This document shows positions 32,457 to 64,000 of a stretch of DNA of 64,000 nucleotides, in pieces. This DNA comes from Rhizophagus irregularis. Taxonomy: Eukaryota. The stretch spans positions 2,108,001 through 2,172,000 of the forward strand of contig NC_089436.1 of NCBI RefSeq assembly GCF_026210795.1. Reading direction: 5' to 3'. The notes beneath the pieces are model-generated. The model saw only the letters and a list, made by a program, of their open reading frames with translations. It had not been told where the DNA came from and did not search any database. Each line of letters opens with the position of its first letter. Within the stretch, counting starts at the first letter, position 1. The translations under genes and the position numbers were made by a program.

Positions 32457-34729
32457 AGTTTTATCCTTTTACAATAACTGGCTGATGAGTTATTTAACAA
32501 AATATTAAACATCAGCCTTATCATATTTCTTGATTTACATTTACTGCACCATTTAACATTTTGCTAAATTTCTCAGTACCTAGTAATTGTAAAAAAGACA
32601 ATTAATAGCTCATTGAAATCATCTCATCAAGACAAATCAAATGGTAGTAAGCTCATCTCTTTGTGATCAATATTGATGGAGTTACTACTTAAAAACCATT
32701 TAATATTTTTTAATTTCAGAAATTGATCTAGTGATTGGATTTCGATATATTTTATATCATTAGATTCGTCACATTAAGACGAATCGAATGGTAGTAAGAT
32801 CGTCTCTCTAGGATCAATATTAGCAAAGTTATTATACAAAAACTATTAATATTTTTTTAATTTCAGAAATTAATCTAGTGATTGGATTTCGATGTATTTT
32901 ATTAGAACCATTTCATCAAAACGAATCAAATGGCGGTAAGCTCGTCTCTCTGTGATCAATATTGACGGAATTACTACTTAATAACCATTTAATATTTTTT
33001 AATTTCGAAAATTGATCTAGTGATTGGATTTTGATGTATTTTATATTATTAGATTTGTCATATCAAGATGAATCGAATGGTAGTAAAATCGTCTCTCTAG
33101 GATCAATATTGGCAGAGTTATTGCACAAAAACTATTAATATCTGATATTTTTTAATTTTAGAAATTAATCTAGTGATTGGATTTCGATGTATTTATACCA
33201 TTAGAACTGTCTCATTAAGACAAATCGAATGGCGGTAAGATCATCTCTTTATAATTAATATTGGCAGAGTTATGATACAATAAAATTTTAAGTATAATTT
33301 TGGCCAAAATTTATATTAATTTTTGGCCGGAATTATGATATACTAATATAAGAAATTTTTTATGTAGTCACATCTCTTTTATATAATCACCAAATATAGA
33401 CTGTCCCAAATGTGTGACTATAAAGAGAGTTGACTGTAATTAATTAATTAATCAATAGGTTTAATGAAACTTGCAAAGCTTAAACTTTTTAAGCAAGATT
33501 TAAATAATTTGAAATGGCTTTAGAGAATACTAATCAAAACAAATATTAAATTAATTACAATATACTATAAAGAAATTTCTAATTCTGACCAAATAATCAA
33601 AGCAGAAAATTATTGAAGTTTAATAGTAATATTCTTTATTTTATAAAAAGAATACTAGTAATTTAAAGCAAATTGATATTTTTAATTTTAAAAAATCAGT
33701 TTTTTGTTATTTTCTCAGCATTTATTTTATAAAATAAAAAAAAGTTCATCTAATTGAATTATTAGATACTAAGATAATTGCAAAAAATAAAAAAGTAAAA
33801 AAAGAGCAAATTTGATTAATTTTAGCAAAAAGTCAGTTATGAATTTTATACTAAATGTCACAGAATTTTAATAACTTCTAATCAATTTGGCTCTAATTTG
33901 AAAATCTGTAATCTAAAATATATTAGCCATATAACTTTTGGTTAAATTTTAACCAAAGTTCAGTCTGTATAAAGCTTTAACCAAAATTTTAATATATAAC
34001 TTTCAAATATCATTTTAAAGTTAACGCAAAAATTATTATATACTGTATATATATGATAATTTTTTTTAAACTCTTTTTTTTATTTAATTCAACACAAGTT
34101 TTAAATATAGTTTTATTTCACTTCAAAATTTTAAAAAAACTTTTTATTAAAAAAAAAATTTATTGTTTTTTTTTTATTTTGTAAATTTTAGCTTCAAATC
34201 TTAAATATTAAATAGATATAAATAAGTTTTATTTTAAGTAATATTTCAAAACTTTATTTTTTTTTATTTTATAGATTTTGGCTTTAATTCTTAGACTTTA
34301 GATAGGTAAGTTTCAAAGATTTTACTTAATTGCTGATTTATTATTTAACAATATGCCTATGCTTAGCAAAATACTATCTTAATAATCTGAAAATAAACAC
34401 TTTGTATATGTTAAAATACTCATTTAAAAAGTATCACATTAATTATACAAATTTTAAAAATTTAATTTCATTGAATTATTTATTTAGCATTAAAAATAAA
34501 AAAAATTAAAATTTTTTTAAAATTTAAGAAATTTGATGCATTTTTAAGCTGTTAATTCTAATTTGTAAAATATTTCATATTTTTTAAATTGGATTTTTTT
34601 TGAAAATCTAATGAAAGTATATATTAATTAATTTTGAAATTTCTAGTTAATATTTTTATTAAACAAAAAATCTTGATGAAATTTTACTAAAAATTTAGCT
34701 AATTGACAATGTTTAGAAATTAAAATCAC

Positions 34730-35321
34730 TTAATTGCCGATCCGCCTAAAATCAGCACTGCGTTACTAATAAAATTTGGGAATAATAGCAATAATAAAAA
34801 AGCATTTTTTGCATCTCGCGTGCGAAATAAGTTTCAACCATTTTACAAACAGAAATATTATAAATACAATATTTTCTTTCATTTTATGACAAGTCATATT
34901 TGCCAAAAAATTTTATAATTATATTTCTGTAACTGGTTTTCTTCAACTTTCACTTGTTTTTAATAATAAAAATATTTCAAAAAAGCTTTTAAAAACAACT
35001 TTAAAAGCTAAAAATTATAGGGTTTTAATGTAAATAATGCAATATAGTAAAATGAAATATTGAAATTTCGTATATTATAAGATGTAAATCTGACGCGCGC
35101 ACATAGTAAACTCATTATTTTGCATATGAATGTATAACTTTTTTTTGCAAATTCGTTTTTTTTAAGTATTTTTTCAGTATATTATATGATTTTTTTTTAT
35201 AGTTAATATGTCATCTATGAGATATCCTTTTTTGAAATTTGTGTTTTAGCACAAAATCGGCAAATTTAACCCCGAATTTTATTAGTAACGCAGTGCCGAT
35301 TTTAGGTGGATCTGCAATTAA
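34730..35321. mobile_element. MITE with ~50-bp TIRs ending in TTAA (piggyBac/Kolobok-like target; superfamily uncertain)
   Basis: ttaattgccgatccgcctaaaatcagcactgcgttactaataaaatttggg / cccgaattttattagtaacgcagtgccgattttaggtggatctgcaattaa. Confidence 0.75.
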
Positions 35322-35739
35322 ATTTTTTGGATAAAAAAACAAAGTTTTTCCAGTAAAAATTTTAAGTGATTTGGTTAGAAATTGATGAACTTTTACTATT
35401 TAGGAAAGTAGTATTCCAGTTTTGCTAATTATTTGTATCATTAAGTGGTAAATTAACAATTAAAACTTTTTCATTAAAAAAATTTTTTTATAATTTTTTT
35501 TTTTCTTTTATTTTGTAAATTTTGGCTTTAATTCTTGAGTATCAGATAGTAAATTTTGAAGATTTTACTTAAAACTTTTTGTTAAAAACACTTATTTTTT
35601 TATTTTATAGTTTTAGTTTCAGTAGAACTCTGAACAATACTGGCTGATACAACTCACATTTGAATTTGCATAGAGTTTATATTAAAATTTTTCAAAAATT
35701 GCATATTACAAGAGTATTTTCAAAATTTTGTTATCCTAT

Positions 35740-36937
35740 TAAAGCTCCGAACGGGTCGGTTTGGTCCAGATTATAGACGGTTCGGATTAGAGCCGAAATC
35801 CATAAGAACCGAACCGAAAAACTGGCGGTTCGGTTCAGTTTAATCCGATTTTTATAAAAATGCTAAAAATCGAATAGCCGGCCATCTAGTGATCGTATAA
35901 AGTCAAGCCATATATCATTGGATTCGTCTCGACGAGACGCGTCGAATGGTGGTAAGATCATGTCTCTAGCATTGATAGAACACACGTTAACCCACGCTAA
36001 ATAATTTATCAATAATTTGAATTAGCAAGCTATCTATCGGTGCTAGAGACATGATCTTAGCGCCATTCGACGCGTCTCTGTGAGACGAATCCAATGAATA
36101 TAAATTTGTTCGTGTACGACCACTAGATGGCGAATAATATCAAGTTTCGCATTTTTTTAAAAATTTCGAGCGTTAAAAATTAAAAATTCCGATACATGAA
36201 TTTATTCGTCGTCTAATGGTCGTACAAATATGAATTAGGATTCATTGGATTCGTCTCGATGAGACGAGTCGAATGGTGGTGAGATCATGTTTCTAGCATT
36301 AATAGATCGTAAGTTAATTCACGCTAAATAATTTATAAAAAATTGGCATTATCAAGCTATCTATCGATGCTAGAGACGTGCTCTTACCACCATTCGACTC
36401 GTCTCATCGAGACGAATCCAATGAGTCCTAATTCATATTTGTATGACCATTGGACGACGAATAAATTCATGTATCGGAATTTTTAATTTTTAACGCTCGA
36501 AAATTTTAAAAAATGCGAAACTTGATATTATTCGCCATATAGTGGTCGTACACGAACGAATTTATATTCATTGGATTCGTCTCACAGAGACGCGTCGAAT
36601 GGCATTAAGATCATGTCTCTAGCACCGATAGATAGCTTGCTAATTCAAATTATTGATAAATCATTTAGCGTGGGTTAACGTGTGTTCTATCGATGCTAGA
36701 GACATGATCTTACCACCATTCGACGCGTCTCGTCGAGACGAATTCAATGATATATGGCTTGACTTTATACGATCACTAGATGGCCGGCTATTCGATTTTT
36801 CGCATTTTTATAAAAAATCGGATTAAACCGAACTGAACCGCCGGTTTTTCAGTTTTAATATCCGAACCGAACCGAACCGAATTTTGAGCCAGTTTCGGAT
36901 CGGTTCCCCGGTTTAGCCCGAACCGTTCAGAGCTTTA
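35740..36937 (+). mobile_element. Palindromic fold-back hAT-type element, younger copy
   Basis: TIRs taaagctccgaacgg / ccgttcagagcttta, perfect 8-bp TSD tatcctat. The interior ~35815-36850 is a near-perfect palindrome built from six alternating gtctcNNNgagac units. Confidence 0.92.
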
Positions 36938-38052: not shown

Positions 38053-40333
38053 TTGATAAATCAAGAATTACTTGAAATTATGATTATATTACCTTCTGGT
38101 AAAACTTTGATATGGAAAGCAGTAGATATAAGTGATCAAAGAGGACGTGCAATTGATGTTATACCAAAAATAGAAGAAATAATATTAAATGATTTAAAGG
38201 AACAATCAATTAAAGTAGCTTGCGGCATATGCTTCAGCATGGTAAGTTGATTATGTAATTATTATATATTAAATTTATTTATTTTTTTTTTAATTTATTT
38301 AATGAATTTTTATTTTATTTAGATGGCAGCTTTATCTCAAATACTTTCAATATGTATTTTTGTCATACTTTGCATATCAATGCAATTTAGCTGTTAGAGA
38401 GATTTTTAAAGAATCTAGTATCTTGAAAAATGCATCTACTAATGCCATCAAATTGGTTAATTATTTTAATCATTCTAATAATGTATATTTTATTGGAAAA
38501 TTACAAAATATTCAACGAGAACTTTATTCAAAATATTATGCAATAATAAAATCTGGCGATACAAAATAGAATTCTTATTATGAATGTTATTTAAGTTTAA
38601 TTCAGACTAAATAGACATTGAAGGTAAGTGAAATTTATTAATTTAAATATTAAAAATTAAATACTAATTTATTATTCTTTAAATAGAATTTAGTTACTCG
38701 TTATGAGCCTTCTGAAGAAACTTCATCAAAATCTACTGAATTATATTTTCCAACTGATATTTGCCAAATAATTATAGGTGATTTATTTTGGTCCCGTATT
38801 TCGCAACTTGCAATATTAATAAAACCTTACTGTGGAGCATTTGGTAAATTGCAAATAGATAAGGCTCAACTATATGATGTTGCTTTATCTTTTGGATATT
38901 TTATTAAATTTTGGGAGCAGAATACAGATCAATTCTTGTCTGAAGGCATAATTTCACATTTTGAAAAATGTTGGAATAACTGGGAACAATTTATACTATT
39001 ACTTTCTTTTGTACTTCATCCCAAATATCACCTTGACAAATTTAATCCTAACTTAGAAACAATCAATTTTGTAACAATAGGAATTTGGCTTGATTATTAT
39101 TATAAAGCTTGGACATCTGAAAAACCAACAAAACTACTTGCATAATTTGAATCTTATTGAGTTAAAAAATTACCTTTTAATAATGAAATATATGAGCAAT
39201 TTGGTGATGATGTTTTGGCATATTAGTACTATTGTTCTATAATGTGTAAGGAATTAGGATTTATAGCAACAAAATTTTCAGTATTTGTGTAAACTCAGTT
39301 TCTATAGAACAATTATTCTTATTTATAGGATTTTTGCACACTTCTTGAAAAAACAAATCAAAGGCAATATTATTTTATTTTGAGTAAATTTATTCATCGC
39401 ACGTGCGATGCATCGCCACTTTCCTTTTTTGTAAATTATTTATGTTGATCAACCTGCTTATACATCGCCACCCCCCTTAAAATGGCAATGATAAACATAA
39501 AAATTTGCATCGCACGTGCGATAAATAAATTATTTCTTTTATTTTTTATATATTATTGATATTTACTAATTATTTTTTTTTTATTTATTTAGCATGAAAG
39601 AGTTGTAGCTATAGCTCAACTTCAAGCAGATATTCATCAGACTGAAAATAAAAAAAAAAGGAAACATGAATCTGAAAAAATAAAGGTAAATATTGCACCA
39701 CCAATTATTGAATCAGCAGGTGAACAAGAAACTGGTAATACAGAACAAAATGAAGCTGAAAGAATACTTGAAGACTTACAAGAAACATCTGATTACATAA
39801 CAACTGAACAAGATTGGATTGAATGTCTGAATGAATGGAATGAGCTATTAATGAAAGAAGAAAAAGCACAAAATTTGGATGTTACAAAGGAATCATTAAA
39901 TTGTAGTGATAATGATCTATTAAATTCATATATATATCCACCCTACTATTAATGCTGATGCAAAGTGGAACTTACGAGATCTTTTTATTAGAGAATTGGA
40001 AAGGCCAGAATTTATATCTGTATTTTCAAAATTTAATTAATTAAATATGTAATTAGTTTATTATAATTTTTTTCATTCAATAACATAATATTAATAATAA
40101 ATAATTATTAAATAATGGTTTAAAATTTAGTAATGCTAATATAAATTTGTAATTAACATTTATTTTATATAATGTTTACCAGAATTAGTTATAATTTTGG
40201 CCCAAATTAATTTAATAATCACGTGATCTATCTAAAACTTGTCCAATGAAAAAAGGTTTTAGTTTTGGACAGATTTTGGATAGAATTTTGGGCAGATGTC
40301 CAAAATATCAAATTGTTCAATTACCTAATACTG
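38053..40333 (+). pseudogene. 5'-truncated, decayed hAT transposase (to ~40040) plus probable right terminus (..ttacctaatactg 40333)
   Basis: LIWKAVDIS, FAYQCNL, GDTK*NS, LHPKY and acidic tail, with many stops and frameshifts; paralogous to 45497-48158. Confidence 0.85.
39387..39531. mobile_element. Small palindromic MITE in an intron of the hAT relic
   Basis: aatttattcatcgcacgtgcgatgca ... tgcatcgcacgtgcgataaataaatt inverted ends. Confidence 0.65.
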
Positions 40334-45335: not shown

Positions 45336-48307
45336 TAGTGTTGGCCATTGGCCATTTGGCCAGGCTTAGACATTGCCTGTTTGGCTGACCAAAAAATGGC
45401 CAAAAATTTTTATATATAAATATTAAAAAAAAGTAACTACTTAAAATTTGTAACATTTAAATTCAATTATTTAATTCATTTTTATTATAAATTTAGTTAA
45501 TTTGAAGTATTTTCATTAACAAAAAATGGGACATCTAAATTATCAATAAAAATGTCTCTTATATTCCATTTAGCTTCATTATCTAATGCAGGATGTGTTC
45601 TATTTAATAAAAATTTATCAATATTTATATCATCATCACAATGTAAATCAGTTACAGCACTCAACTTTGCTTCTTTTTCCTGTAATAATAATTACCTCCA
45701 TGTATTAATTAGATTATTCCAATTTAATGAAACCTGGAATTTATTATTTTCACCTTCTTCATCTGAATCATCATCTTGAGTGTTAGAATTTCCTTTTTGG
45801 ATTTCTAAGTTAATAGGATTTTTTTCTTGATTCTCTAAATTTGTATTATCATTACTATTAATAATTATAGGAACTATTAGTTCAGCAATATTTTCTTTCA
45901 TTTTTTGTTGTTAAATAGTTTTCACTTCATCAACCCTATATTTATATGAAATTGCAGCACGTAATTTGCTCATTTTAAGTGTTTTTTCATACTATTTAAA
46001 AAATAAATTATTTATTATTACATTAAATTATAATTTTTTTAAAATAATATTATTTTACTTACATTTAATCTATTGCACCTTTTGGTATGTAGAAATCCCA
46101 TATTTGACCAAAGCCTTTCTACTGATGCTGCATTAATACAGATTCCAAAAATTTGTTGTGCGATATATTCAAGTTCTTTTGCTAATGGAACAACAAATCC
46201 CCAATATTTTAAAATATCATCTTCAAATTGATTAATTGTTTGTTCATCAAAAGGATATATATTTCTTCTAAAATTTTCATATTCACGTAAAATTGATTTT
46301 GATTTTGTTTTCGTCCAAGCTTCGTAATAATAAATTAGCCACTTACTAAGATATACATGATTTAAATTTGGGATATTATCTTTAAATTTTGACATCTTGT
46401 ATTTAGGATGTAGGAGCCATAATAAAAGTAAAAGTGGCTGTTCCCAACTTTGCCATCTTGTTTGAAGTCGATCAAGTATTTTCTCATTAAGTTCTATGTT
46501 ATCATAATCTTTCCAAAATTTTATAAAATATCCAAATCCATGCAGTACTTTATGCAGTCGTGCTTTATCACATTGTAGAATATCCAAAATTATACAGTAT
46601 GGTTTAAGTATTTTTACAAGTTCTGAAAGTGATTGCCACCAGGTTTCGTCAAGTAGAATATAAGAAATATTATCAGGTAGATATAATATATTATCAGAAC
46701 TTTGATAAGATGTTGATTGCTCAGAAGATTCAAATTTTGAACCTAAAGTCTTTAGAAAAATAGAAACAAATTATTTTCAAATGTTATATAAAAATAAATA
46801 AAACAAAATATATTATAATACCCGTAATGCCCCTTTTGATTTAATTAAAGTGCGAAAACATTCATAATGGTTATTCCATCTTGTATCATTTCCAATTGCG
46901 ATTTGAACATATTTTCCATATGATTCTTTTTGTAAAGTTCGAAGCTGTTCAATAAAATATTTATGAAGTGATGATTTAAAGTAAAGTGCAATTTTTATTG
47001 CCTTTATTGATGCTTGCTTAAATTTTTCAGATTCTTTAAAGATTTCGCCTACAAAAAGATTCATCTGATGTGCAAAACATGGAAAAAACGTAATATGCAG
47101 ATATTTAAGTCGAAGCTTACGTCTGTTAAAATATAAAATATAATTAATATTTACATAAAATATTAAATAAATATTTTAATAACTTAATTTTTAAAAAAAT
47201 ATGCAAATATACCGTGCAGCAGCATAACTTGGAGTACTATCAGTTACAACAGAAATAAGATTAACTCCCATTTAATTAATTTTCTTAAACATTGTTTCAG
47301 TTTTTTCAATAACTTCTTTCCATCTTTCTAATTCACTGCTTACATCTACTGCTTTCCAAATTATTACTTCCCCTTCTGATGTAATAAAAACAGAGCCAAG
47401 AATATTCTGATTTAACACATTAGTCCAACCATCAAAGGCTAAAGTAACACCAACAGAATCATTCATTAATTTCTTAGTCATTTCATTTTCAAGAATTTTT
47501 GATTCGTCATTTAATATACGTCCTCCTAAAGTTTTACGTCCTGGTAAAATTAATGCTGGATTTAAAAAATGAAAAAGTTCTTGAACTTTCTTATTTTCCA
47601 CCCATCTTAAAGGAAAACCTGCAGAACTGTTGCTTGAATCATTAATTTTTCAAATATAGCTTATTCACCCTTTATAAATAATCAAGTTGCAAGTGGTCTA
47701 GTAATGAAAGAATCAAGTGTACCAACTGATGAATTATTGCTGCCTATATAAAAAAATATTAATAATAGTTTTAATATAAAATTATCAAGTATTATTATTA
47801 ATAAATAAAATAAAAGATAAATACTTCTCAATGATATAGAAGTTATAGCACTATGAACTGAACCAGTTGATTCTCTACGCAATCTTTTTGAACTTACAAT
47901 ATTTTCGTCAAATTCATTAATTTCCATTCTTTTTGTTTCTGATGCAAATAATTCAAAAAATATTTCAGGATATTTATTTTTAAAATGTTGACATTTTTTC
48001 AAGTGATTTCTAACTCGTTCAGTTTTAAATGGAAATTTTTGAAGCAATGCATTTGGACAGCCATTAACATCTCTACACGCAATACAAATACAATAATTTT
48101 GCCAATTATCAGCTTTTTCTGGTAATATTTTCACAAAGGTTTTAAAATTAGCAGCCATTTATTTATATTTTATTTGTTTTTAGTTGGTGAGTTAGTCAGA
48201 TTTGAACACAAAAATCAAATTATAAATACCGGAAAAAAAAGATGATAAAAAAAAAAGATTGCTGATCTTGGCCAATCTGGCTGATTTAGCCGTTAGCCAA
48301 TCGGCCT
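45336..48307 (-). mobile_element. hAT transposon with decayed multi-exon transposase (48158-45497); one TIR lost
   Basis: BED-like finger (CICIAC..HLKKC), LAFDGWTNV, CFAHQMNL, DTRWNNHY, LHPKY, ASVERLWS, with stops and frameshifts. Terminus tagtgttggccattggcc at 45336 and tggcc subterminal repeats at both ends. Confidence 0.9.
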
Positions 48308-50530: not shown

Positions 50531-51638
50531 GAGATCCCCCAATTCCCTCTGTCATCAATTTACAGAGTTGCCACATCGAACGGGCATTCTCATGGTCGAA
50601 CGAACGAATAAACGAACGAACGAATAAACGAACGAACGAACAATTAAACGAACAAGCAAATAATCGACGGCATAATTAACAAATAATATAATCAACGCAC
50701 AACAACAATATACAACAACATTCTTGGTTTACAACATAAATAGCGTTAGTAATATAAAACGTTGAACGATATAAAATAAAATTAGCTTCTCTAAATTTTC
50801 CCCAAATTATATCCACTTTTACCTTTAATTTCAAACTTCGATAGCTCTCGCTACGAATTATTACTTTAATTAACATTAAACTTCATTAACAAATAATTAA
50901 ATGAAACTTATATTTTATTGAGTTCTGTGGATGAGAACTATGGAATTACTTTGAATTCCGCTCTCTATATATACAATTTTTATGCTACTTTCTATTCTGT
51001 CTATATACTATCTTTTATGTTCTTTTTACATATTATCTTTGAACTATTTTTCTAATATACTATCTATATTTTAAATACGCTATCTTTTAATATGCTATCT
51101 TTTAATATGCTATCTTTTTATATATGTTCTTTTTAATATATTATCTTTTACGTTCCATCTTTATACTATCTTTTTATATTATCTTTTACATTATTTTGTG
51201 TTCTTTAATCTTTCTGACATTATTTTATATGTTCCTTTAATTCGCTTTATGTGTTTTGCTTATAATCTATCTTTTGTGGCTTATAATTATTCTTTCTTAT
51301 CGTTCTTATTGTTAAAGATTGCTAAGCCGCAATTGATCGACTCTATTTATCCTATTGGTTCCTTATCAATCATTCAATAAATATTACATCATGTAGATCA
51401 TTACTCTTCCTAAATGTTTATCAACATTATAGATATCACTTAGTTTATATATCACTAAAAATTTGAGTTCGTAAAAATTATGGGATTCCTATTACTCTTC
51501 CTAAATGTTTATCCTTTTCGGCTAATTATTTATCCATCTACGCCAATCCATAATTAATTTGTTCGTTCTTAATATTTAATAATTACATTTGGTGGTTGAA
51601 TTTTATCATCTTTTCGTGCTTGATATTCAACCGTTTAC
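50531..51638. mobile_element. 1.1-kb non-coding insertion without TIRs, bounded by 6-bp direct repeats
   Basis: Interrupts an array unit: aacgtt|gagatcccc ... ccgtttac|aatgtt. Confidence 0.65.
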
Positions 51639-53992
51639 AATGTTAGTTAACGTTCGTTAATAAAAATATTAAAAAAAATAAAATTTTCGAAGGGTTTTAC
51701 CTTCGATATAGGAGTCTGGAACTCGGTTTCAGATTTCCTTGCCTAAAAAAAAAAGACGAAACGTTTGTTAACATTTTGCTAAATAAAAATATTAAAAAAA
51801 ATTAATTTTTTTGAAAAGTCTTACCTCCGATATGGGAGTCCGGAACTTGTTTCGGATTCCTTTGCCTAAAAAAAAGAGACAAAACATTAGAAACGTTTCG
51901 TTAATAAATTAATTAAAAAAAAAATTAATTTTCGAAGGTTTGTTTTACCTTTGATATGGAAGTCCGGAACTTGTTTCGGCTTCCTTTACCTGAAAAAAAA
52001 GAAACAAAACATTATAAACTGAACGTTTCGTTAATAAATTAATTAAAAGAAATAATTTGAAAGTTTTACCTTCAAACAGAACTTTCAAATGGGTCCGGAA
52101 CATACCTTTAGCATTCTGGACCTATAAAATACAAAAACGAACGTAACTAACGTTCGTTAAAGTTAAATTATAAAAAAAAAATATTTCAAAGATTTTTACC
52201 TTCAAAATAAACGTCCGGAGCCATTCTTTGGCGTCCAGGACTTATAAATATAAAAATGAACGTTAATTAATGTTCGTTAAATAAAAATATAAAAAAAAAT
52301 TCAAAGGTAAAACCTTTACCTTCGAAATAAGAGTCTGGAGCCGTTCTTCGGCGCCCAGGACCTAAAAACATGAAAAACGAACATTAATTAACGTTCGTTA
52401 AAATAAAATTAAAAGAAATATTTCGAAGGTAAACTTTACCTTCGAAATAAACGTCTGGAGCCATTCTTCGGCGCCCAACACCTAAAAACATGAAAAACAA
52501 ACGTTAATTAACATTCGTTAAAATAAAATTAAAAAAAATATTTTGAAGGTAAACTTTACTATCGAAATAAACGTCCGGAGCCATTCTTCAGCGCCCAGGA
52601 CCTATAAAACGTAAAAATGAACGTTAATTAACGTTCGTTAAAATAAAATTAAAAAAATATTTCGAAGGTAAACTTTACCTTCGAAATAAACGTCCGGAGC
52701 CGTTCTTTGGCGTCCAGGACCTATAAAACGTAAAAATGAACGTTAATTAATGTTCGTTAAAATAAAATTAAAAAAATATTTCAAAGGTAAACTTTACCTT
52801 CGAAATAAACGTCCGGAGCCGTTCTTTGGCGTCCAGGACCTATAAAACGTAAAAACGAACGTTAATTAATGTTCGTTAAAATAAAATTAAAAAAAATATT
52901 TCGAAGGTAAACTTTACCTTCGAAATAAATGTCCGGAGCCGTTCTTCGGCGCCCAGGACCTAAAAACATGAAAAACGAACGTTAATTAATGTTTGTTAAA
53001 ATAAAATTAAAAAAAATATTTCAAAGGTAAACTTTACCTTTGAAATAAACGTCCGGAGCTGTTCTTTAGCGTCTAGGACCTATAAAACGTAAAAATGAAC
53101 GTTAATTAATGTTTGTTAAAATAAAATTAAAAAAAATATTTCGAAGGTAAACTTTACCTTCGAAATAAACGTCCGGAGCCATTCTTTAGCGTCCAGGACC
53201 TATAAAACGTAAAAACAAATGTTAATTAATGTTCGTTAAAATAAAATTAAAAAAATATTTCGAAGGTAAACTTTACCTTTGAAATAAACGTCCGGAGCCG
53301 TTCTTTGGCGTCCAGGACCTATAAAACGTAAAAATGAACGTTAATTAATGTTCGTTAAAATAAAATTAAAAAAAATATTTCGAAGGTAAACTTTACCTTC
53401 AAAATAAACGTCCGGAGCCGTTTTTTGGCGTCCAGGACCTATAAAACGTAAAAACGAACGTTAATTATAGTTCGTTAAAATAAAATTAAAAAAAATATTT
53501 CGAAGGTAAACTTTACCTTTGAAATAAACGTCCGGAGCCGTTCTTTGGCGTCCAGGACCTATAAAACGTAAAAATGAACGTTAATTAATGTTCATTAAAA
53601 TAAAATTAAAAAAAATATTTTGAAGGTAAACTTTACCTTCGAAATAAACGTCCAGAGCCGTTCTTCGACGCCCAGGACCTAAAAACATGACATATGGGCT
53701 GATCACTGACGCTCATTTCACTAAGTACATTTTGTGACATGATCCTGATCTGTACTACCAAAATGCGTGATAACTTGAATTTCGAGCCAATTGTCGTTCT
53801 GATTAACAAGAAAAAAAATTTTTTTACTATTGAAATCATTTGTTTCAAATGAGTTGTAAATGGGTTTGGAAGAGTTCATCGCGAAATTAAGAAAATATTA
53901 AAAGAAGGTATTTTTATTTTTAATATTCAAGTTTTAAAAGTTTTTTTAATTAAGAAACAAAATTTATATAAAACAACTCTTTATAACGCGTT

Positions 53993-56562
53993 ATGGTAAG
54001 TAATTTTACTTTGTAAAATAATATATGTATTTATTAACTTAACTATTAATTATTTACAAGTAGACTGCAAGAATTTTTTACCATAATTATCCTAATGATC
54101 CTTATATATATGCTCAATACACTTCTGGAGGAAAAAATTTTTGTTCAAAATATAAGATAATAACACTCGGACATTACCCACAGAATATTAAATATACACA
54201 AAAAAATAACCATAATGCTGTTCAATATCCGATACCAGATGGATATAATGTGAAAACGGAAATTGCAGATCAAATGCTATGTTGTGAAACAAAGTATACT
54301 TTGGCAAATAAGGTTTTATACACTATTACATGGAAAGAAAGACGAGCAGAATGGATGGTATCTAGTGAGCGATCTGCTAGTGGGGCTGTAAATGAGTTCC
54401 TAAAGGTATCTTAATTATTTTGCGCAACACGTTTTATGCATTTTTACTATTTTATTAATTATTTTATATCAATGTAGAAAACTAATCGTAAAAAATCTCA
54501 AATTTCTGGAGTACATGTCTTTGGATTTGATATTAAAATATTGCATCAATTACGAATTGAACAACCTAGAGAACTATCAACTGATAAAATTACTATTGAT
54601 AAAAGAAAAAGACCACTTAATGAAATACAATCATTGTCACAGCAAAACAAACGATATGCATCATTTGGAAGAGATGCTTACAAGAAAGTTAAAAACCTTA
54701 TCTTAAAACATCGAATGGTCTCAGAATCTGAGGAGCCAATTTGTATACGTAGTATGGAATTAGAAAATGGGAATAATATCATTAATATAAAATATAATTC
54801 ATTATTGGATCTTACAAGGTTAGATGCATATGTACGTGTATGTGATGAGACCTTATTAAGTCGTGATGGGTATCGAAGGCTTGCAACTATAGAAGCACGA
54901 TTGATACGGGAGTATCAAGTTGCACATAGGCGAATTGAGATCACTAAATTAATAAATAACCAAATAAACATTGGAACATTTAATCTTGATAAAGGACTTG
55001 ATCAGCAATCTATACTTGATGATAATGATGAACCTCAAGGTAATCCTGATGGAATTATAGTTGATGAACAAGAAGTTGGAAATGGTGTTTATCGATCAGT
55101 CCGAACCCTTCTTCAAACACTTATTCCTATTTGGAATAAATCAGTTCCACCAATTCTACAATCAGGAGATACAATAAATTTAAAACTCAGTGGTGATGGA
55201 AGAAATGTGGGTCATAAACAGAATCATGTGATGCTAACTTTCTGTCTGTTAAATGAAAAAGATGAAGTGTTAAAGCCAGACTATCAATATTGGTAAGATA
55301 GAGTTTATAGCATATGTTTTTTTGTTAAAATAACTAAATAAGAAATAGTATTTGTCTTTATGTGGGAAAAGAAAAATACGAAACATTGGCCAAAGTTGGC
55401 CATTTATTCAAGCTTCAGCTTTTGGACCTTAAAGAAAATGGAATTTATGTTAATGGCATACACTGGCCAATTGAGTTTTTTCTTTCTAGTGATTGGAAGT
55501 TTATGTATAACGTAATGGGATTAAATGCACCAAACTCAAAATATTTTTGTTTATATTGTGAATGTGAATCTAATATTCGCTGGGACATGAATTTAAAGTG
55601 GCCAATTAATAAAAATACGCAATGTAAGTTTAAAATATTTTTATTAAATAAAGCATTTATTTATTATATTAACTTTAACATTTAGTTTAAAATTTTTTTA
55701 ATTATAGCTAAGAAAAAACCCGAATTATTTCCTGTTATCAAACAGAAAAATTACATTCCTGACGAACTACATTTATTATTACGTATCTCAGATGTATTGA
55801 TGGAATGTTTTTTTAATAACTTATTTAAAAAAAAGGAATTTGAACGGGTAATTAAAAGTCAAATCGAACAAACTATGAAATCTATTCAAGTACATTTTGA
55901 ATTTTTTAAGTCACAGGGTGGAAAATGGGATTGGACTTCGTTGATGGGACCTAATAAGAAAAAAGTTCTACAACATTTTCCAGTCACTAATTTTATCTCA
56001 GGAAGACGTGGTGAAGATATTCAAAAACTTTGGCGTGATTTTTACGATCTATATATGTTTATAAGACGAACAGATCTTAAGAATTCCGAGATTGATGATT
56101 TTGAAATTAAAGTAAAAGAATGGATTTATTTGTTTTGTAGGCCAAATCAAGGTCAGATAAATTCATCATCACAAGTACCAGGTTTATACAGAAAGGAAGA
56201 TGTCACACCGTATATGCATATCTTTTCGCAGCACATTCCTGAATTTTTGCGAATCCTTAAAGAAAAGAATTTGTCATTGCAGTTTTTTTTTGCTTCAAGT
56301 ATTGAAAAAAAAAATCATAACCAGGTAAATATAAATTATTAAATTATTAATTATTAAACAAACTTTAATTACTTTTAAATTTTTCATTTAGGTTCGGTTA
56401 TTTTTTGGTGGCACTACTATGGGTGGCGGGATTAAAGGAAAATCTGTAGTACAAGATATAATGGAATTTGAAAATCGTCAGCTATTTTATTTGCTTAATA
56501 ATACTTCGCAAGAAATCCAGATACGAAATATTAATGCAGAAGATAAAGAAAACAACAATTAA
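53993..56562 (+). CDS. RAG1/Transib/Chapaev-like DDE transposase with FYRN/FYRC-like N-terminus; 6 exons, 740 aa, uninterrupted
   Basis: Exons 53993-53995, 54064-54405, 54478-55292, 55349-55623, 55708-56324, 56392-56562 (2223 nt). Motifs KLSGDG, SDWKF..GL....SKYFCLYC, DELHLLLR, SLMG, TPYMH....H, SSIEKKNH. Confidence 0.85.
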
Positions 56563-56612
56563 TAAGGTAAAATTTTAAACTTACTATATTGATTTATATT
56601 CTGAAGTGGTGG

Positions 56613-57319
56613 TCACGGTAAAATATAACAAAACTTTCCTTTAATAGATTCTTCAGGTGATTTTTGATTATTCAATGTTGCTATTTGTTTCTCATTACTA
56701 TATTAAAAAAAAAAAAAATATGCATTTTAAAAATAGGTTTGCGTTATAAAACATACTTTTCCTGAAATTCTCCAGAATCAGTAATGAAATTACAGGTCAT
56801 TCTTCCCAACGTGAACTCTCTGTTATTCTCTGATAATGTCGTTTGATTCCACATAAATTTGACTTGATACGTATTTTCATAATCCTCAAGTAAAACATAA
56901 CCCTTAGTATTAGTAAAGGGATTCTGTCGGAAATTCCAATGATCATAGTGAAATATTTCCTTAAGTTTAGCTGCTCCTGCGAATCCTTCAAAACAACATT
57001 GATATTTGTGTTTAGCAGGACTATATTTAAACTTTTCTTCATTTTTAAAAAGATATACAAACACATTTTCTGGGAAAGTTTCGATAGAAAAACGTTTTTT
57101 CCCAATAGCATGACGGGAAAATCCAAGTTTTTTTTTAATAAGAACAATAAAAGAGTTAATATAGTAAGACATTTGTTCCGAAGAGGGTTGGGGAAGCGAA
57201 CAAAAGTGGGGTATTGTTTTGTTATGTGAATGTTTATTTCTTTTGTGAATAAGCAATTTTTGATAAGTCATAAAAGCTCTAAAACAAAGCTTGCAACTGA
57301 TAGAAGACTGGCTCGCCAT
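56613..57319 (-). CDS. C2H2 zinc-finger partner protein of unknown function; 2 exons (57319-56757, 56697-56613)
   Basis: CKLC..F....L..HKRNKH at the N-terminus. The homolog in copy 2 has the same phase-2 intron after DSGEF. The stop at 56613 is probably CGA>TGA (ILP*PPLQ vs ILPRSPLQ). Confidence 0.8.
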
Positions 57320-59352
57320 AACTACGACACGACCTCTGAAAAAAAACTAACTAATATCTGATCAGCTAATCAGAGTTCGTGATTATCACATTGTTGATCA
57401 AGGTGAAAGAATTGAAGATGAGCGAAATTAGCCCATATGAAAAACGAACGTTAATTAACGTTCGTTAAAATAAAATTAAAAAAATATTTTGAAGGTAAAC
57501 TTTACCTTCGAAATAAATGTCCAGAGCCGTTCTTTGGCGTCCAGGACCTATAAAATGTAAAAACGAACATTAATTAATGTTCGTTAAAATAAAATTAAAA
57601 AAAATATTTCAAAGGTAAACTTTACCTTTGAAATAAACGTCCGGAGCCGTTCTTTGGCATCCAGGACCTATAAAACATAAAAACGAACGTTAATTAACGT
57701 TTGTTAAAATAAAATTAAAAAAAATATTTTGAAGGTAAACTTTACCTTCAAAATAAACGTCCGGAGCCGTTCTTTGGCGTCCAGGACCTATAAAACATGA
57801 AAAACGAACGTTAATTAACGTTTGTTAAAATAAAATTAAAAAAATATTTCGAAGGTAAACTTTACCTTTGAAATAAACATCCAGAGCCGTTCTTTGGCGT
57901 CCAGGACCTATAAAACGTAAAAATGAACGTTAATTAACGTTTGTTAAAATAAAATTAAAAAAAATATTTCGAAGGTAAACTTTACCTTCGAAATAAATGT
58001 CCGGAGCCGTTCTTTGGCGTTCAGGATCTATAAAACGTAAAAACGAACGTTAATTAACGTTCGTTAAAATAAAATTAAAAAAAATATTTCAAAGGTAAAC
58101 TTTACCTTTGAAATAAACGTCCGGAGCTGTTCTTCAGCGTCCAGGACCTAAAAACATGAAAAACGAACGTTAATTAACGTTCGTTGAAATAAAATTGAAA
58201 AAAATATTTCGAAGGTAAACTTTACCTTCAAAATAAACGTCCGGAGCCATTCTTTAGCGTCCAGGACCTATAAAATGTAAAAACGAACATTAGCGACGTT
58301 CGTTAAACAAAAATATAAAAAAAAATTTTGAAGGTAAAGGTTTTACCTTCGAAATAAGAGTCCGGAGCCATTCTTTGGCATTCAGGACAAGAAAATAATA
58401 AACCGAACGTTGGACAACGTCCGGTATATAAAAAATATTAGTTTCGAAGTTTTACCTTCAAAATAGAGTCTGGAACTGGTACTTTCAGCGCTCTGGACTT
58501 ACAAAAAAAAAAATAAAACGAACTTTAGCTAATGTTTCGTTAAATTTTTTTTTTTGAAATGGAGTCCAGGACGTACCTTTTGTGTTCTGGATTAATAAAA
58601 CAAACATTTTCTAACGTTCGTTAAATAATACTAATATCAAAGTTTGAAATAGAGTACCTTCGGCGTTCTGTAAAATGTATTTTTTGAAGGAGATAAAGGA
58701 GTCCGACATCTTTTTAGTCCGAATCTCCTGCATGTTGCAGATTATATGCCGAATGTTGGACGAATTTGCCTTAAAGACTCCGAACCTTGCAAATAAATTT
58801 TTTTTTTAAAAAAAAATTTCTTTGATAAGTTTCAAAGCTTAAAAAACTATAATAGAAATATTTTTTCTTTGGAATCTTTAACAGATTATTTCCTAAAAGG
58901 TGTTGTAGAAAAAATTATTTCACTTCTTTAGTAATAAGTGTTGTAGAAAAATTTTTTTTTTAAAGTCTTGTAAAGTTTTTTTTTTAAAGAGTATTGTAAA
59001 AAAAATTAAATCAAGTTAGAGTTAATCAAAGTTTAAATATTAAATCAATGATGAAATTGCAGATCGAACTGATATTTTAATGAAAAAAAAGCAAAAATCT
59101 GCAAAATTGCAGACTTCTGCATAAATTTCACATAAAAAAAAGCAGAAATCTGCAAAATCGCAGATTACTGCAGAAATTCATACATAAAAAATCAGAAACT
59201 TGCAAAATTGCAGATTATTGCATAACTTTGTAAAAAATAAAAAGCAGAAATCTGCAAAATCGCAGACTTCCGCATAAATTCACAAAAAAAATGCGGAGAT
59301 CTGCTAATTTTACAGATCTCTGCAGTTCTGCATCTTAAAAAATTTCCCGATG

Positions 59353-60331
59353 TTAGAATCCTTAAGTTTTAATACCCATAATTTTGTATCAGTTTAAATA
59401 CATGCTATTATTGCTTGAATGACTTCGTATATAGTATTGCAAGTGAATTTTTCTTTTGTATCACACATGTCAATTAGATCATCCCAAATGAAGGATTTTA
59501 CGTTTCAAGTTTTTGATCCTGATTGGCACAGTAGCAATAAAATCTATATATTTTATTTTTTCATATAATATAGACATTTTTATTAATATGCTTCCGATTA
59601 CATAATGGGCAGTATGATAGAAAGTTGCAAATTAATAGGAACAAGTCTGAAATATTATTTGAGGAAGGTGAGAGAGTTATACCCTTTGACACAATTATCT
59701 TTAAGTAACGTTTTCACAAATTCAAATTCTGCTTAATTCGTTTCATCATTAGTATCATTACACCCTTTAGCTTCTAGTTTTGAAACAATTAAGAGAGGAT
59801 TTTCTGCGATTTCTAATTCATCATTTGGCAAGCGAATCATGAAGTCAAAAATGGTTCTATCTTTTGGATGTATTGCTTTTTTCACATGAACGTACTTCTT
59901 TATTTTTTCATTGTACTTGAACAAACTAAGCATTCGCAAGGAAAATGAACGTTTATTTACAATATTATTTATAATATTATTTTCCTGAAGAGACGCTAAA
60001 AGTTTCTTATGAACAAGTTCAGTAAATAATGCAACTTGAACATCAATAATTTTAAGTCTCATACTGAAAGTGAAGATATGGAGAGACATTTTTTTGCATT
60101 ACTACTACTGGCAATAGTTGTAGTTTTACGATCCCAGTCTGAAAATATATCTTTACACATTTTTGCAAAAGCGCAGACAAGTGAATTTTGTATCTCTTTG
60201 CCTATTAGTTTAGGTTCAATAGAATTATATATCTCTCGTGGCAAATCAAAGTCTATAATAGGCTGGAATGGCTCATTTCCATCAATAAATTCGTGTAAAA
60301 AATATAATTGTTTCCGAAATTCAATTGGCAA
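59353..60331 (-). pseudogene. Archaeo-eukaryotic primase (PrimPol-like) part of the decayed primase-helicase gene
   Basis: LHEFIDG..PIIDFDL (DxD motif), K.SLH, SLRML and a decayed Cys-containing segment, frameshifted; continuous with 48308-49034 across the insertion. Confidence 0.75.
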
Positions 60332-60652
60332 ATCTGAAATCCAAAATTACAAAATCGTAATTAATTACGTATTCCGAAATTCTGAAATTTGCATAATAGT
60401 ACGAAATTGCGAATATCTCGGGATATAGTGATCAGATTTCGATGATCTTACTACCATTCGATTCATCTTATCGAGACGAATCTAATGATATGTGTTTCAT
60501 TTCTATAGCACCGATATTAATGGAGTAAAATTACTATAAACATTTAATAAATTTTGGTGTCGAAGCACGATCTAGTGATTAGATTTGAATGAATTTACCA
60601 CCATTCGATTCATCATAACGAGACGATTCTAATGGCGGTAAGATTATCTTTC
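60332..60652. repeat. Fragment of a gtctcNNNgagac-motif repeat element, target of transposon copy 2
   Basis: ccattcgattcatcttatcgagacgaatctaatg (~60453) and ccattcgattcatcataacgagacgattctaatggcggtaagat (~60601). Confidence 0.65.
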
Positions 60653-61100
60653 CATATGGGCTGATTTGAATCTGATCACATAGTAAATTTGGGTGATAAG
60701 ATCAGGTGTAACGTGATACTATTATGCATATAAGCTGCATATCATAGTAAAAATTTGTGACTTTATCATGAAGAACCAATCTTCGTTAAATCAAAACAAC
60801 TGTAATCGCGAGTTGCAAATTGGTTTCAGATTGGTTTTTGCTGCATCGCAAAGAGTTAGGGAAAAAACTTTTAAAAAGTTTTTCGCTATAAAGTTAGTTT
60901 TGCTTGTAATAATAAAATATTTTTACGCGTATTCTGTATTAAAATGGCGTATGTGTTAGGGTCAAGTCAAGAAAATAACTGAAGTAACCAAAGTGAAACG
61001 CTATTTTTTATAAACGGTACTTTTTTTCTTTAATTATAATTAAACTTGGGATTATATAGTTAATATATTACCAAATACTTTCTAATAAAATATTATTTAG

Positions 61101-63598
61101 ATGGCTATTTTACGAGAAATTTTTCTTATCAATATCCTGCAAGTTCTTTTATAACATCACAATACATATCAGGAAACCGACCCTTTTATTTTTGGTATAA
61201 AGTAGTGTCTTTAGGATATTATCCAACACCAGTTAAACTTACACAAAAAAATTCTAAAGATTGTATTCAATATCAAATACCTGATAACTATAGTGTTGAA
61301 ACTGAAGTTTCTAAAATGAAGATCCGTTGTGAAACAAAGTATCAACCAAATGGAAAAGTAAGGTTTACAATTGTGTGGAAAGAAAATAGATCAGAGTTGA
61401 GTATATACAGTGATCGCTCTGCAACTAGTGTTGTTAATGCGTTCTTAAAGGTATTATTATTATTTTTTTTTCAAAACTGAACTTTTAATAATTATTTTTA
61501 TTGATCTTATTAATTATACAGAAAAATAATCGCTCAAATTCTAATTTATCGGGAGTATACATTTTTGGGTTTGATATTGGACGATTGCATGAATGTCGCT
61601 TAGAAACAATGGGTGCTTCTATTACATTAGTTAACAAAAGAAAAAGGCCTCTAACAACGATTCAAACCATCTCAGGGCAAAATAAAAGATTTGCATCTTT
61701 AGGCAGAGAATCTGGAAAGGCAATTAGATCTTTGATTAAAAAACATCAATTGACTGATGAAACTAATCAACCAATTATTCATATTCATAAAATTGAATTG
61801 GATTTTAATGGCGAAAGTATTATTTTAACTTACAATCTACCTGATAATAAAAATGAACTTACAAAAATAGATGCTATTGTTAGAGCTTGTGATGAATCAT
61901 TGTTAGCACGTGATGGATATCGGCGGCTTGCTGCAGTTGAAGCATTTCTTATACGTGAATATTTGATAGCTAATCGTAGGGTTGAAATTACAAATCTTAT
62001 TAATAAAGATCTTAGAATTGGAACATTTAACATCAATAAAAGTGATAATGATCTGTTAATCATTTAGAATCTGATGATGGTATAATAGTTGATGAGGCAG
62101 AAATTGGAAATGGTGCATACAGGTCAATTTACACGATTTTACAAACTTTAATACCATTATGGAAAGAATCATCTCCTGCAATCATCAATTCTGGTGATAT
62201 ACTTAAACTTAAGCTTGGTGGAGATGGTCGCAATGTTGGTCGTAAGCAAAGCCATGTAATGATGACGATTTGTCTTTTAAATGAAGGAGAAGAAGTCTTA
62301 AAACCTGAACATCAATACTGGTAATAAATTTATTGTGATTTAATAACCAAAAATTAATTTAAATTATTAAATTTTTTTTTTTTAGCATTTGTCTTTATGT
62401 TGGACGAGAAAAATATGATGACCTTGCTAAGATAGGAAAATTATTTCAACATCAGCTTCTTGATCTCCAAAATAACGGAATATATGATAAAGATGGGAAT
62501 CATTGGCCAGTGGAATTGTTTTTTTCTGGTGACTGGAAGTTTATGTATATAATAATGGGATTGAACGCCCCAAATTCGAAGTATTTTTGTTTATATTGTA
62601 ACTGTCAATCTGAGTTACGCTGGGATATGGAACAAAATTTTGAAAATTCAGGAAATCATGCCTGTAATGTTAAAGGTTTTTTTTTCATGATTATTTTATT
62701 ACCAATTAATTAAAACTATGAATATTTACTAATAATTAGGTGAAAATAGAAAACCAGCATTATTTCCTGCAATAAATCAAGAAAATTATATTCCTGACGA
62801 ATTACATCTACTTTTGCGCATTGTTGATGTTTTGATGGAATGCTTTTTTAATGATGTAATTAAAAAAAAAGAGTTTGAAAAAAAATTAAATTAGAGATTG
62901 AACAAGCAATGCAAAACATTAAAGTTCATTTTGAGTTTTTCAAGTCAAGATCTACTAGTGGAAAGTGGGATTGGACTTCTTTAATGGGTCCTGATAAAAA
63001 GAAAGTATTGGAACATTTTCCAATTTCTCAATTTATTTCTGGCACTCGTGGACAAGAAATTGAAAAACTATGGAAGGAATTTCTCCGGCTTTATAAAGTT
63101 TTAAGAAAACCTTTTCTTTCAAACCAAGAAATTGATGCGTTTGAAATTGATGCCAAACAATGGATCCGTACCTTTTATTGTGCAACTGAAGGACATCCCA
63201 ATTCAATATCACATAAACCTGGATTATATCGCAAACAAGATGTAACCCCTTATATGCATGTTTTCGCACAACACATGCATCAATTTATGCGCTAATTAAA
63301 GATGAAAAACTTATCATTACGATATTTTTCTACTTCTAGTATTGAAAGAAAAAATCACGATCAGGTAATTTGTAAATTTATTTAAAAAGGATATTTTATT
63401 ACATATATTAATATTAATAGACCTTTTAATTAGGTTCAGTTATTTTTTGGTGGTACCACTATGGGTGGTGGAACTGAAAAAAAATTGGTAGTATATAATA
63501 TTATGTCTTTTGAAAATCGTCAACTTTATTACTTAGTTAACAAAACTCCCAAAGAAATTAATACTAGGAATATTGATTCTAACAAAAAAGTAAATTAA
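61101..63598 (+). pseudogene. RAG1/Transib-like transposase of copy 2, disrupted
   Basis: KLGGDG, GDWKF..FCLYC, DELHLLLR, TPYMH, SIERKNH with equivalent intron positions to copy 1. Frameshifts near 62055 and 62880 (A-run) and a TAA at 63293. First exon unresolved. Confidence 0.88.
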
Positions 63599-63602
63599 AA
63601 TA

Positions 63603-64000
63603 TCATACATAGTGCTTTTGATCTAAGAATAATTGTTGAAGAGGAGAGCGTGGTAAAATAATTCTATATTGTGATTGATTATTTTTGGTAGTAGGCGTTG
63701 TAATATGACTTTCGGATTCTTGTAATTTTTTTTCGTCATTTCTAATAAAAAGTAATAAATACTTTAATTCATATAAATTTTGCACATAAAATTTAAAAAC
63801 TTACTCGTTTACAAATTCTCCCGAATCTGTTGTAAAAGTGCAAGTGACAACACCACATTGAAATGTCCGGTTGTTTTCAACTAATTTGGTCTGTGTCCAA
63901 CTAAAAGTAACCTCATGACTTTCCTCATAATTCACAAATAGTACATATCCAGTTGTTTTTGTTATCAGATCCTGTCGACAACTCCAATGTTCATAATTCA
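63603..64000 (-). CDS. 3' part of the partner gene of copy 2 (exons >64000-63805, 63741-63603)
   Basis: YEHWSCRQDLITKTTGYVLFVNYEESHEVTFSWTQTKLVENNRTFQCGVVTCTFTTDSGEF aligns by eye with copy 1 YDHWNFRQNPFTNTKGYVLLEDYENTYQVKFMWNQTTLSENNREFTLGRMTCNFITDSGEF. Confidence 0.8.

Follow-up and report, generated by a model that had tools for sequence, protein, structure and literature searches.

A two-gene transposon with a RAG1-like transposase and a zinc-finger partner in an arbuscular mycorrhizal fungus

RAG originated from a Transib-like transposase that acquired RAG2. Transibs encode one protein; a second gene is on record for MuDR, Harbinger and En/Spm (PMC1131882) and for KolobokP, where it lies downstream on the opposite strand (PMC9587614). 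Transib falls within the CMCT clade, which comprises EnSpm/CACTA, Mirage, Chapaev, Transib, Plavaka, ESTA as well as Lanisha and has RAG1-like motifs throughout: a DDE core, a C(2)C motif, an H(3-4)H motif and a third His, with CA..TG ends in most members. Fungal members often have extra genes (PMC12730594). Here we describe an element that invites comparison with these systems. Within 64,000 nt of the Rhizophagus irregularis genome (assembly GCF_026210795.1, NC_089436.1, positions 2,108,001 to 2,172,000; hereafter the window, to which coordinates refer), positions 53691-57439 are a DNA transposon with two convergent genes, one for a RAG1-like transposase and one for a C2H2 zinc-finger protein, the partner.

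The element and its transposase

This element, copy 1, spans 3749 bp on the forward strand, and its ends read CATATGGGCT(G/A)AT. The 13-bp terminal inverted repeat on the transposase side, CATATGGGCTGAT at 53691-53703, recurs in inverse orientation on the partner side (57427-57439, minus strand) with one mismatch, and a third copy lies in the window at 60653. Allowing up to two mismatches, the repeat gives five matches against 0.80 expected, a number reached in 0 of 100 shuffles. The insertion breaks a single unit of a 120-bp tandem array, the left part of which (52093-53690) represents the insertion target and the right part of which occupies 57440-58465. The interrupted unit has six A, one more than the five shared by all intact units listed from 52118 to 58264, which suggests that the insertion duplicated 1 bp. 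The array unit (52093-58465) also contains a 31-bp near-perfect palindrome, and an Rfam scan of 51500-61000 returned zero matches.

The transposase gene occupies 53993-56562 on the plus strand in six exons (53993-53995, 54064-54405, 54478-55292, 55349-55623, 55708-56324 and 56392-56562), joined across five GT-AG introns into a spliced product of 740 aa free of internal stops. Its motif series comprises D355 (SGDG), D435 (SDWK) and E678 as DDE residues, C454, C457, H649 and H654 as zinc site, and D497/H500, with the first Asp, D355, assigned by motif only. When the 35 members of the family set were searched individually against Pfam, no known transposase family was matched. A profile of 22 sequences, by contrast, found 11 RAG1/RAG1L sequences among the 13 listed (E 2.7e-7 to 1.7e-4), with second Asp, CxxC, His pair and Glu all in register, and gave no match to HzTransib at E<=10. 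Only such deeper profiles reached RAG1; a shallow 35-sequence profile had no PDB match.

Structure prediction points the same way. Foldseek, run on a model of P0009, a relative of full length (55% identical; mean predicted local distance difference test, pLDDT, 56.6, uneven), placed RAG1 chains at ranks 1-14 and in most listed rows down to rank 28, the best RAG1 row having E 1.7e-3 and probability 0.99 and none reaching E<=0.001. Because the model is weak, the fold match is limited to residues 484-665, which VIA aligned to BbRAG1L with Z 12.2 (root-mean-square deviation, rmsd, 3.4; 153 aligned), to RAG1 with Z up to 12.9 and to HzTransib (6pqn) with Z 10.1 (rmsd 3.7, 144 aligned); identity in the structural alignments to RAG1/RAG1L-type proteins was only 11-15%. 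On profile and predicted fold, then, the transposase is RAG1-like by distant homology, which bears out the RAG1-type core proposed in the initial annotation from motifs.

How widely does this transposase occur? All named relatives from first searches were Glomeromycota (48 for the transposase, 46 for the partner), the closest being labelled R. irregularis. A search of 1.84 billion representatives gave 2766 transposase matches at E<=0.001; among the best 150 of these 2766, twenty were looked up, and these take in another clade within Glomeromycota, Lithocolla (a nucleariid), Nematostella, Clytia and Argopecten. Viral and prokaryote contigs yielded no relative of either gene. In a tree of the core, the window transposase falls within a well-supported clade of eight rows whose named members are Glomeromycota; built without RAG1, Transib or Chapaev references, this tree cannot place the family.

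The N-terminal region may set the transposase apart. A domain at about residues 9-150 (54085-54582, plus strand, spanning intron 2) is predicted to be FYR-like on fold evidence only: in the P0009 model, whose N-terminal ~140 residues are the well-predicted part, residues 22-164 aligned to the FYR domain 2wzo_A with Z 12.0 (rmsd 3.9, 120 aligned of 146). At the sequence level, neither Pfam nor an N-terminal profile gave a match to FYR, and that profile had zero matches among PDB sequences. The first 150 residues contain one Cys pair region only. Further downstream, a basic segment at about residues 157-190 (54601-54702, plus strand) aligns weakly (0.9 bits, conditional E 0.006) to a stretch of RAG1 that we take to be the nonamer-binding domain, a likeness that is a hint only.

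The partner gene, its linkage and the element ends

Convergent to the transposase, the partner gene lies on the minus strand at 56613-57319 in two exons (57319-56757 and 56697-56613). As had been proposed from the sequence, it is a C2H2 gene; its spliced product of 215 aa is identical to the database protein P0049 and comprises the finger, an alpha/beta domain of ~145 aa and a tail stopped inside a conserved motif. Members of the family have 188-241 aa, one C2H2 finger (matched by Pfam in 22 of 29) and a mixed alpha/beta model, and in all five tested the isoelectric point is 9.0-9.4. Their second exon is variable and terminates in a conserved ILPR motif, the extended form of which, (Y/F)R(Y/F/I)ILPRxPLQ, is matched in 23 of 30 sequences. 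In Pfam, 29 members matched 18 families, neither kelch nor PHD among them, so the partner is not RAG2, as the initial annotation held; nor did Pfam match it to any enzyme or chromatin-reader family. Weak matches below cut-off were to DUF7953 (12/29) and DUF7066 (8/29).

The ~145-aa domain found no clear fold match (VIA best Z 4.2; Foldseek best E 0.15 in PDB and 3.9e-3 among viral entries), an outcome that shows neither a new nor a different fold. A PDB sequence search retrieved C2H2 fingers and one stray match only, Atlas matches were all under 0.9, and there was no similarity to the transposase profile. One longer protein among 6542 candidates was considered as a fusion and discarded, since it resembles a gene-model chimera. 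Partner relatives came from Glomeromycota and metagenome records only, in a search that reaches close relatives only.

Is the partner a constant part of the element? A metagenome scan with the partner alignment confirmed at least 28 loci from 593 of about 920 stretches, and the counts that follow concern loci chosen through the partner. In 22 of the 28, tblastn found a convergent transposase 204-331 bp downstream; a further one, in L018, was recognised from its last bases, giving 23/28, or 16/20 after merging near-identical loci. L017 is too short to show a downstream transposase. The terminal repeat precedes the partner in 21/28 loci, once as a CG variant; it is absent upstream in L007 and L020, two of the 23 loci with at least 130 bp of upstream DNA, and the other five are short of such DNA. 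The convergent layout is retained down to 39% transposase identity (L025). Protein searches added five transposase-partner pairs on equally long contigs and one pair with adjacent gene names.

Both genes are constrained. Among 21 elements, considering pairs with a synonymous divergence (dS) of 0.2-1.5, the median ratio of nonsynonymous to synonymous substitution rates (dN/dS) was 0.174 for the partner (90 pairs) and 0.227 for the transposase (83 pairs), values that contain some noise at exon edges because codons were placed by profile column. In trees of 16 elements, chosen for retaining sufficient sequence of the two genes and with each near-identical group represented once, 7 of 13 splits are common to partner and transposase (random mean 0.26, maximum 3), and their distances are correlated (Mantel r 0.73, p 1e-4). 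A partner swap is also apparent: the partner of L007/L028 is 86-87% identical to that of L014, the transposase only 60%. Thus, the partner is a core gene of the element, as had been surmised from its presence in two copies; it evolves under purifying selection, and no partner was shown outside element ends.

Some loci show other arrangements. L009 (59-2342) and L012 (327-2610) are 99.6% identical over these stretches, which start at the terminal repeat, have different flanks and consist of the partner followed by non-transposase DNA, possibly a partner-only derivative or an assembly join. L017 (624-1015) is internally deleted, its terminal repeat leading directly into the middle of a broken partner gene.

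Ends of the form CATATGGG occur in the window and in most loci, and every end found starts with CAT or CGT. The most divergent family, L025 (3518) and L026 (2), has terminal CG instead of CA. In five groups of 98-100% identical copies the flanks diverge exactly at CATATGG; differing flanks of near-identical copies are as expected of recent movement, although short-read assembly can mimic this. Inside the ends, the 4-mers TCAC and GTGA are about ninefold denser than in the element body (55 in 1008 subterminal positions versus 41 in 6647). Of seven transposase-side ends, five have their first TCAC at nt 24 and five have GTGA at nt 40-41; of 14 partner-side ends, 12 have their first TCAC at nt 32-34 and six have GTGA at nt 51, so that the two end types are offset by about one helical turn. 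In the window, TCAC and GTGA lie at nt 34 and nt 51, respectively, on the partner side; the left end departs from the spacing pattern, with the two motifs at nt 28 and nt 44. In L024 (4300-4361), the transposase-side end is of partner-side type, with a tandem duplication of 30 bp of its terminus.

Turning to the target site, flanks of five complete metagenome elements match at 1 bp in two cases and not in three, and none matches over 3-10 bp. With the window element included, a target duplication of 2-5 bp is absent from five of six complete elements (L016 has a 2-bp AA; metagenome contigs may join unrelated flanks), and one of 5 bp from all six. Thirty flanks revealed no fixed target and no fixed TA, and no empty site for the five metagenome elements was present among the DNA compared.

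Downstream of copy 1 lies copy 2 (60653-64000, plus strand), a diverged family truncated by the window edge, 67% identical to copy 1 over 2390 nt. As described in the initial annotation, it keeps the gene orientation, the left end, the positions of four introns in the transposase and that of the intron in the partner (the 3' part of its partner gene lies at about 63600-64000, minus strand); its transposase, however, is broken: the frame shifts near 62060 and again near 62890, and there is a stop at 63293-63295. Copy 2 is located within a dispersed repeat (60420-60652) that recurs at about 28400 and 32600-36800. Copy 1, for its part, is decaying. Its transposase deviates at 14 of 249 conserved sites (0-5 in eight of 16 other elements, with a maximum of 75 in the most divergent), half of these 14 being C-to-T or G-to-A, and in its partner a TGA replaces the relatives' Arg within the conserved tail motif. 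In view of these lesions and of the broken copy 2, the earlier description of an intact 740-aa transposase between terminal repeats stands for the ends and for an open frame only.

Elsewhere in the window, an intron-containing gene at 14271-19176 (minus strand) has N6-adenine methyltransferase domains (N6_Mtase E 1.7e-13, Eco57I E 4.3e-11, weak TaqI_C) and resembles a bacterial restriction-modification enzyme, here in a fungal genome. Remains of hAT-like transposases are found at 46039-48158 (weak hAT dimerisation match, E 0.004) and 38687-39145. Two broken frames without Pfam match lie at 59733-60346 (minus strand), a DFD motif in one of them presumably recalling primase.

What the partner may do

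What is the role of the second gene? We favour, at about an even chance, the reading of a two-gene transposon of arbuscular mycorrhizal fungi whose partner is a DNA- or chromatin-binding helper and not a counterpart of RAG2. The transposase, judging by homology, would cut and paste the element, its DDE/zinc core cleaving at the CA..TG ends by analogy with RAG1 and Transib. The TCAC/GTGA motifs found 24-61 nt in from either end, and lying about 10 bp deeper on the partner side, are putative protein-binding sites that might be read by the basic segment of the transposase, by the partner, or by both. The basic partner could bind element DNA and either help to load the transposase or keep the element accessible, possibly acting through the FYR-like domain or its own tail motif, and integration would duplicate about one base or none. 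Such a helper would work as TnpA does in En/Spm or the Myb protein in Harbinger. That the partner most likely serves the element follows from its fixed place inside the ends and from purifying selection, and a DNA- or chromatin-binding role is favoured by its basic charge, its zinc finger and the phased subterminal motifs. The FYR-like domain is a possible dock because FYR domains in JMJ14 bind sequence-specific NAC factors (PMC4659397). To judge from the partner swap, a loose role is more likely than that of a tightly matched subunit.

Several observations weigh against this picture. A single C2H2 finger seldom confers specific DNA binding, and in the family, constraint is looser on the finger (dN/dS 0.27) than on the partner main domain (0.18). 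The transposase alone may read the subterminal motifs, leaving the partner a regulator, and the motif counts are not independent because the ends are related by descent. The RNase H part of the weak transposase model lies mostly under a pLDDT of 50, the FYR call depends on a single fold match, and the one-base duplication depends on a single site. Three of the 28 loci (L009, L012 and L026) have at least 990 bp of other DNA downstream without a transposase, and L008 has none in its 377 bp downstream. Full congruence of the two trees is rejected (approximately unbiased test, p 0.007 and 1.5e-9), chiefly because of the L007/L028 swap.

Alternatively, the partner may be an anti-silencing or transcription factor only, one that never contacts a transposase working alone as in Transib, a possibility we rate as real though on the unlikely side. 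VANC of VANDAL elements offers an anti-silencing parallel. A partner swapped between transposases 40% apart would fit, as would the short tail motif (23/30), which is as expected for docking on a host factor, and the share of C-to-T and G-to-A changes in copy 1, which is consistent with methylation decay; moreover, fungal CMCT TET/JBP genes have been proposed to counter silencing (PMC12730594). Against it speaks the Pfam result, which gives the partner no enzyme or chromatin-reader family, and long-term co-divergence fits anti-silencing and helper equally well.

We consider it improbable that the partner is instead an obligate subunit, bound to the catalytic core and required for cleavage, as an independent functional equivalent of RAG2; this would be the initial annotation's two-component system in its strongest form. 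The sequence profile reaching RAG1/RAG1L and not HzTransib, the convergent layout kept to 39% transposase identity, and a partner constrained as much as the transposase all argue for such a subunit; the swap argues against it, as does the distribution of partner kin, found only in Glomeromycota and metagenomes (in a search limited to close relatives) while the lineage of the transposase extends to a nucleariid, to cnidarians and to a mollusc. Quite unlikely, too, is the most far-reaching version: a new RAG1-like branch that recruited its own second subunit independently of RAG2, with inner sites of its ends one helical turn apart as a parallel to the 12/23 rule, a partner docked via an FYR domain of the kind otherwise seen in enzymes that modify histones, and a one-base stagger without parallel among CMCT elements. 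Captured cargo that benefits host or copy without a role in transposition or element control is very improbable, as position and orientation are fixed in 16/20 distinct loci, partner dN/dS is 0.17 and no partner locus was shown outside element ends (2/23 with at least 130 bp upstream are without recognisable repeat), even if L009, L012 and L026 hold partner genes with a terminal repeat and no adjacent transposase.

Comparison with described transposons

On the features tested, the element is not a member of RAGL, Transib, Chapaev, ESTA or Plavaka. With ProtoRAG and RAGL elements (PMC7204232, PMC9435367) it shares a RAG1-like transposase, two convergent genes, short terminal repeats and unequal ends; it differs in having no kelch-PHD RAG2L, ends in CAT/CGT instead of CAC, no 5-bp duplication and no CTT1 cysteine motif in the window transposase, and identity in structural alignments is 11-15%. 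The ProtoRAG-like architecture claimed in the initial annotation therefore reduces to a resemblance in layout, all the more since second genes are known elsewhere.

The zinc-binding helical domain matches HzTransib as well (Z 10.1), but Transibs have CAC ends and 5-bp duplications, neither of which is seen here, and the sequence profile did not match HzTransib. Transib was described as absent from fungi (PMC5751038). "Transib" has been reported in R. irregularis by hidden Markov model, without structural description (PMC11075540); the two-gene family may lie under that label. Likeness to Chapaev/Chapaev3 consists in 4 of 94 relatives matching DUF1280 weakly (best E 2.7e-5, 24.3 bits, cut-off 25) and in transposase kin in cnidarians, where Chapaevs occur; the second gene and the lack of an N-terminal Chapa or RING zinc finger are differences. 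ESTA was rejected because its TA target duplication is not seen (30 flanks without fixed TA), and Plavaka because the ends are CATAT, not TGT or CATCA, and no Plavaka family is among the Pfam matches of the 35 members.

A transposase with a dedicated second gene recalls the accessory genes of En/Spm (TnpA), Harbinger (Myb), KolobokP and Kol0, and an opposite-strand downstream gene recalls KolobokP in particular; the partner, however, has no Pfam homology to any of them. En/Spm elements have repeated subterminal motifs, as does this element.

A search of published papers found no description of the two-gene family, of FYRN with a transposase, or of a "1-bp TSD" (target-site duplication). The main text and table of PMC12730594 name no Glomeromycota member, nor does the supplement of PMC9435367. 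There is still some chance, if a minor one, that the family is already catalogued in repeat libraries or supplements (Repbase, Repbase Reports, the PMC11075540 library, or the PMC12730594/Lanisha supplements). The family also puts a name to a set of "hypothetical proteins" from mycorrhizal genomes (an Atlas cluster of 242 members), the repeats of which mostly lack a classification.

Taken together, the element is a variant of the CMCT (EnSpm/Chapaev/Transib) clade with an accessory gene. In common with the clade, the window transposase has C454/C457 and H649/H654 between D435 and E678, aligned to the RAG1L motifs, and the ends are CA..TG (with the CG variant in L025 and L026); what differs is the predicted FYR-like N-terminus, the unrelated C2H2 partner and, apparently, the lack of a 2-5-bp duplication in 5/6 complete elements. 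If confirmed, the FYR-like transposase domain and the target duplication of 0-1 bp would both be firsts within the clade. As a distinct lineage of that clade with a different partner, the family provides a natural control for why such enzymes take a second protein, in an element that is ordinary in kind and unusual in some of its parts.

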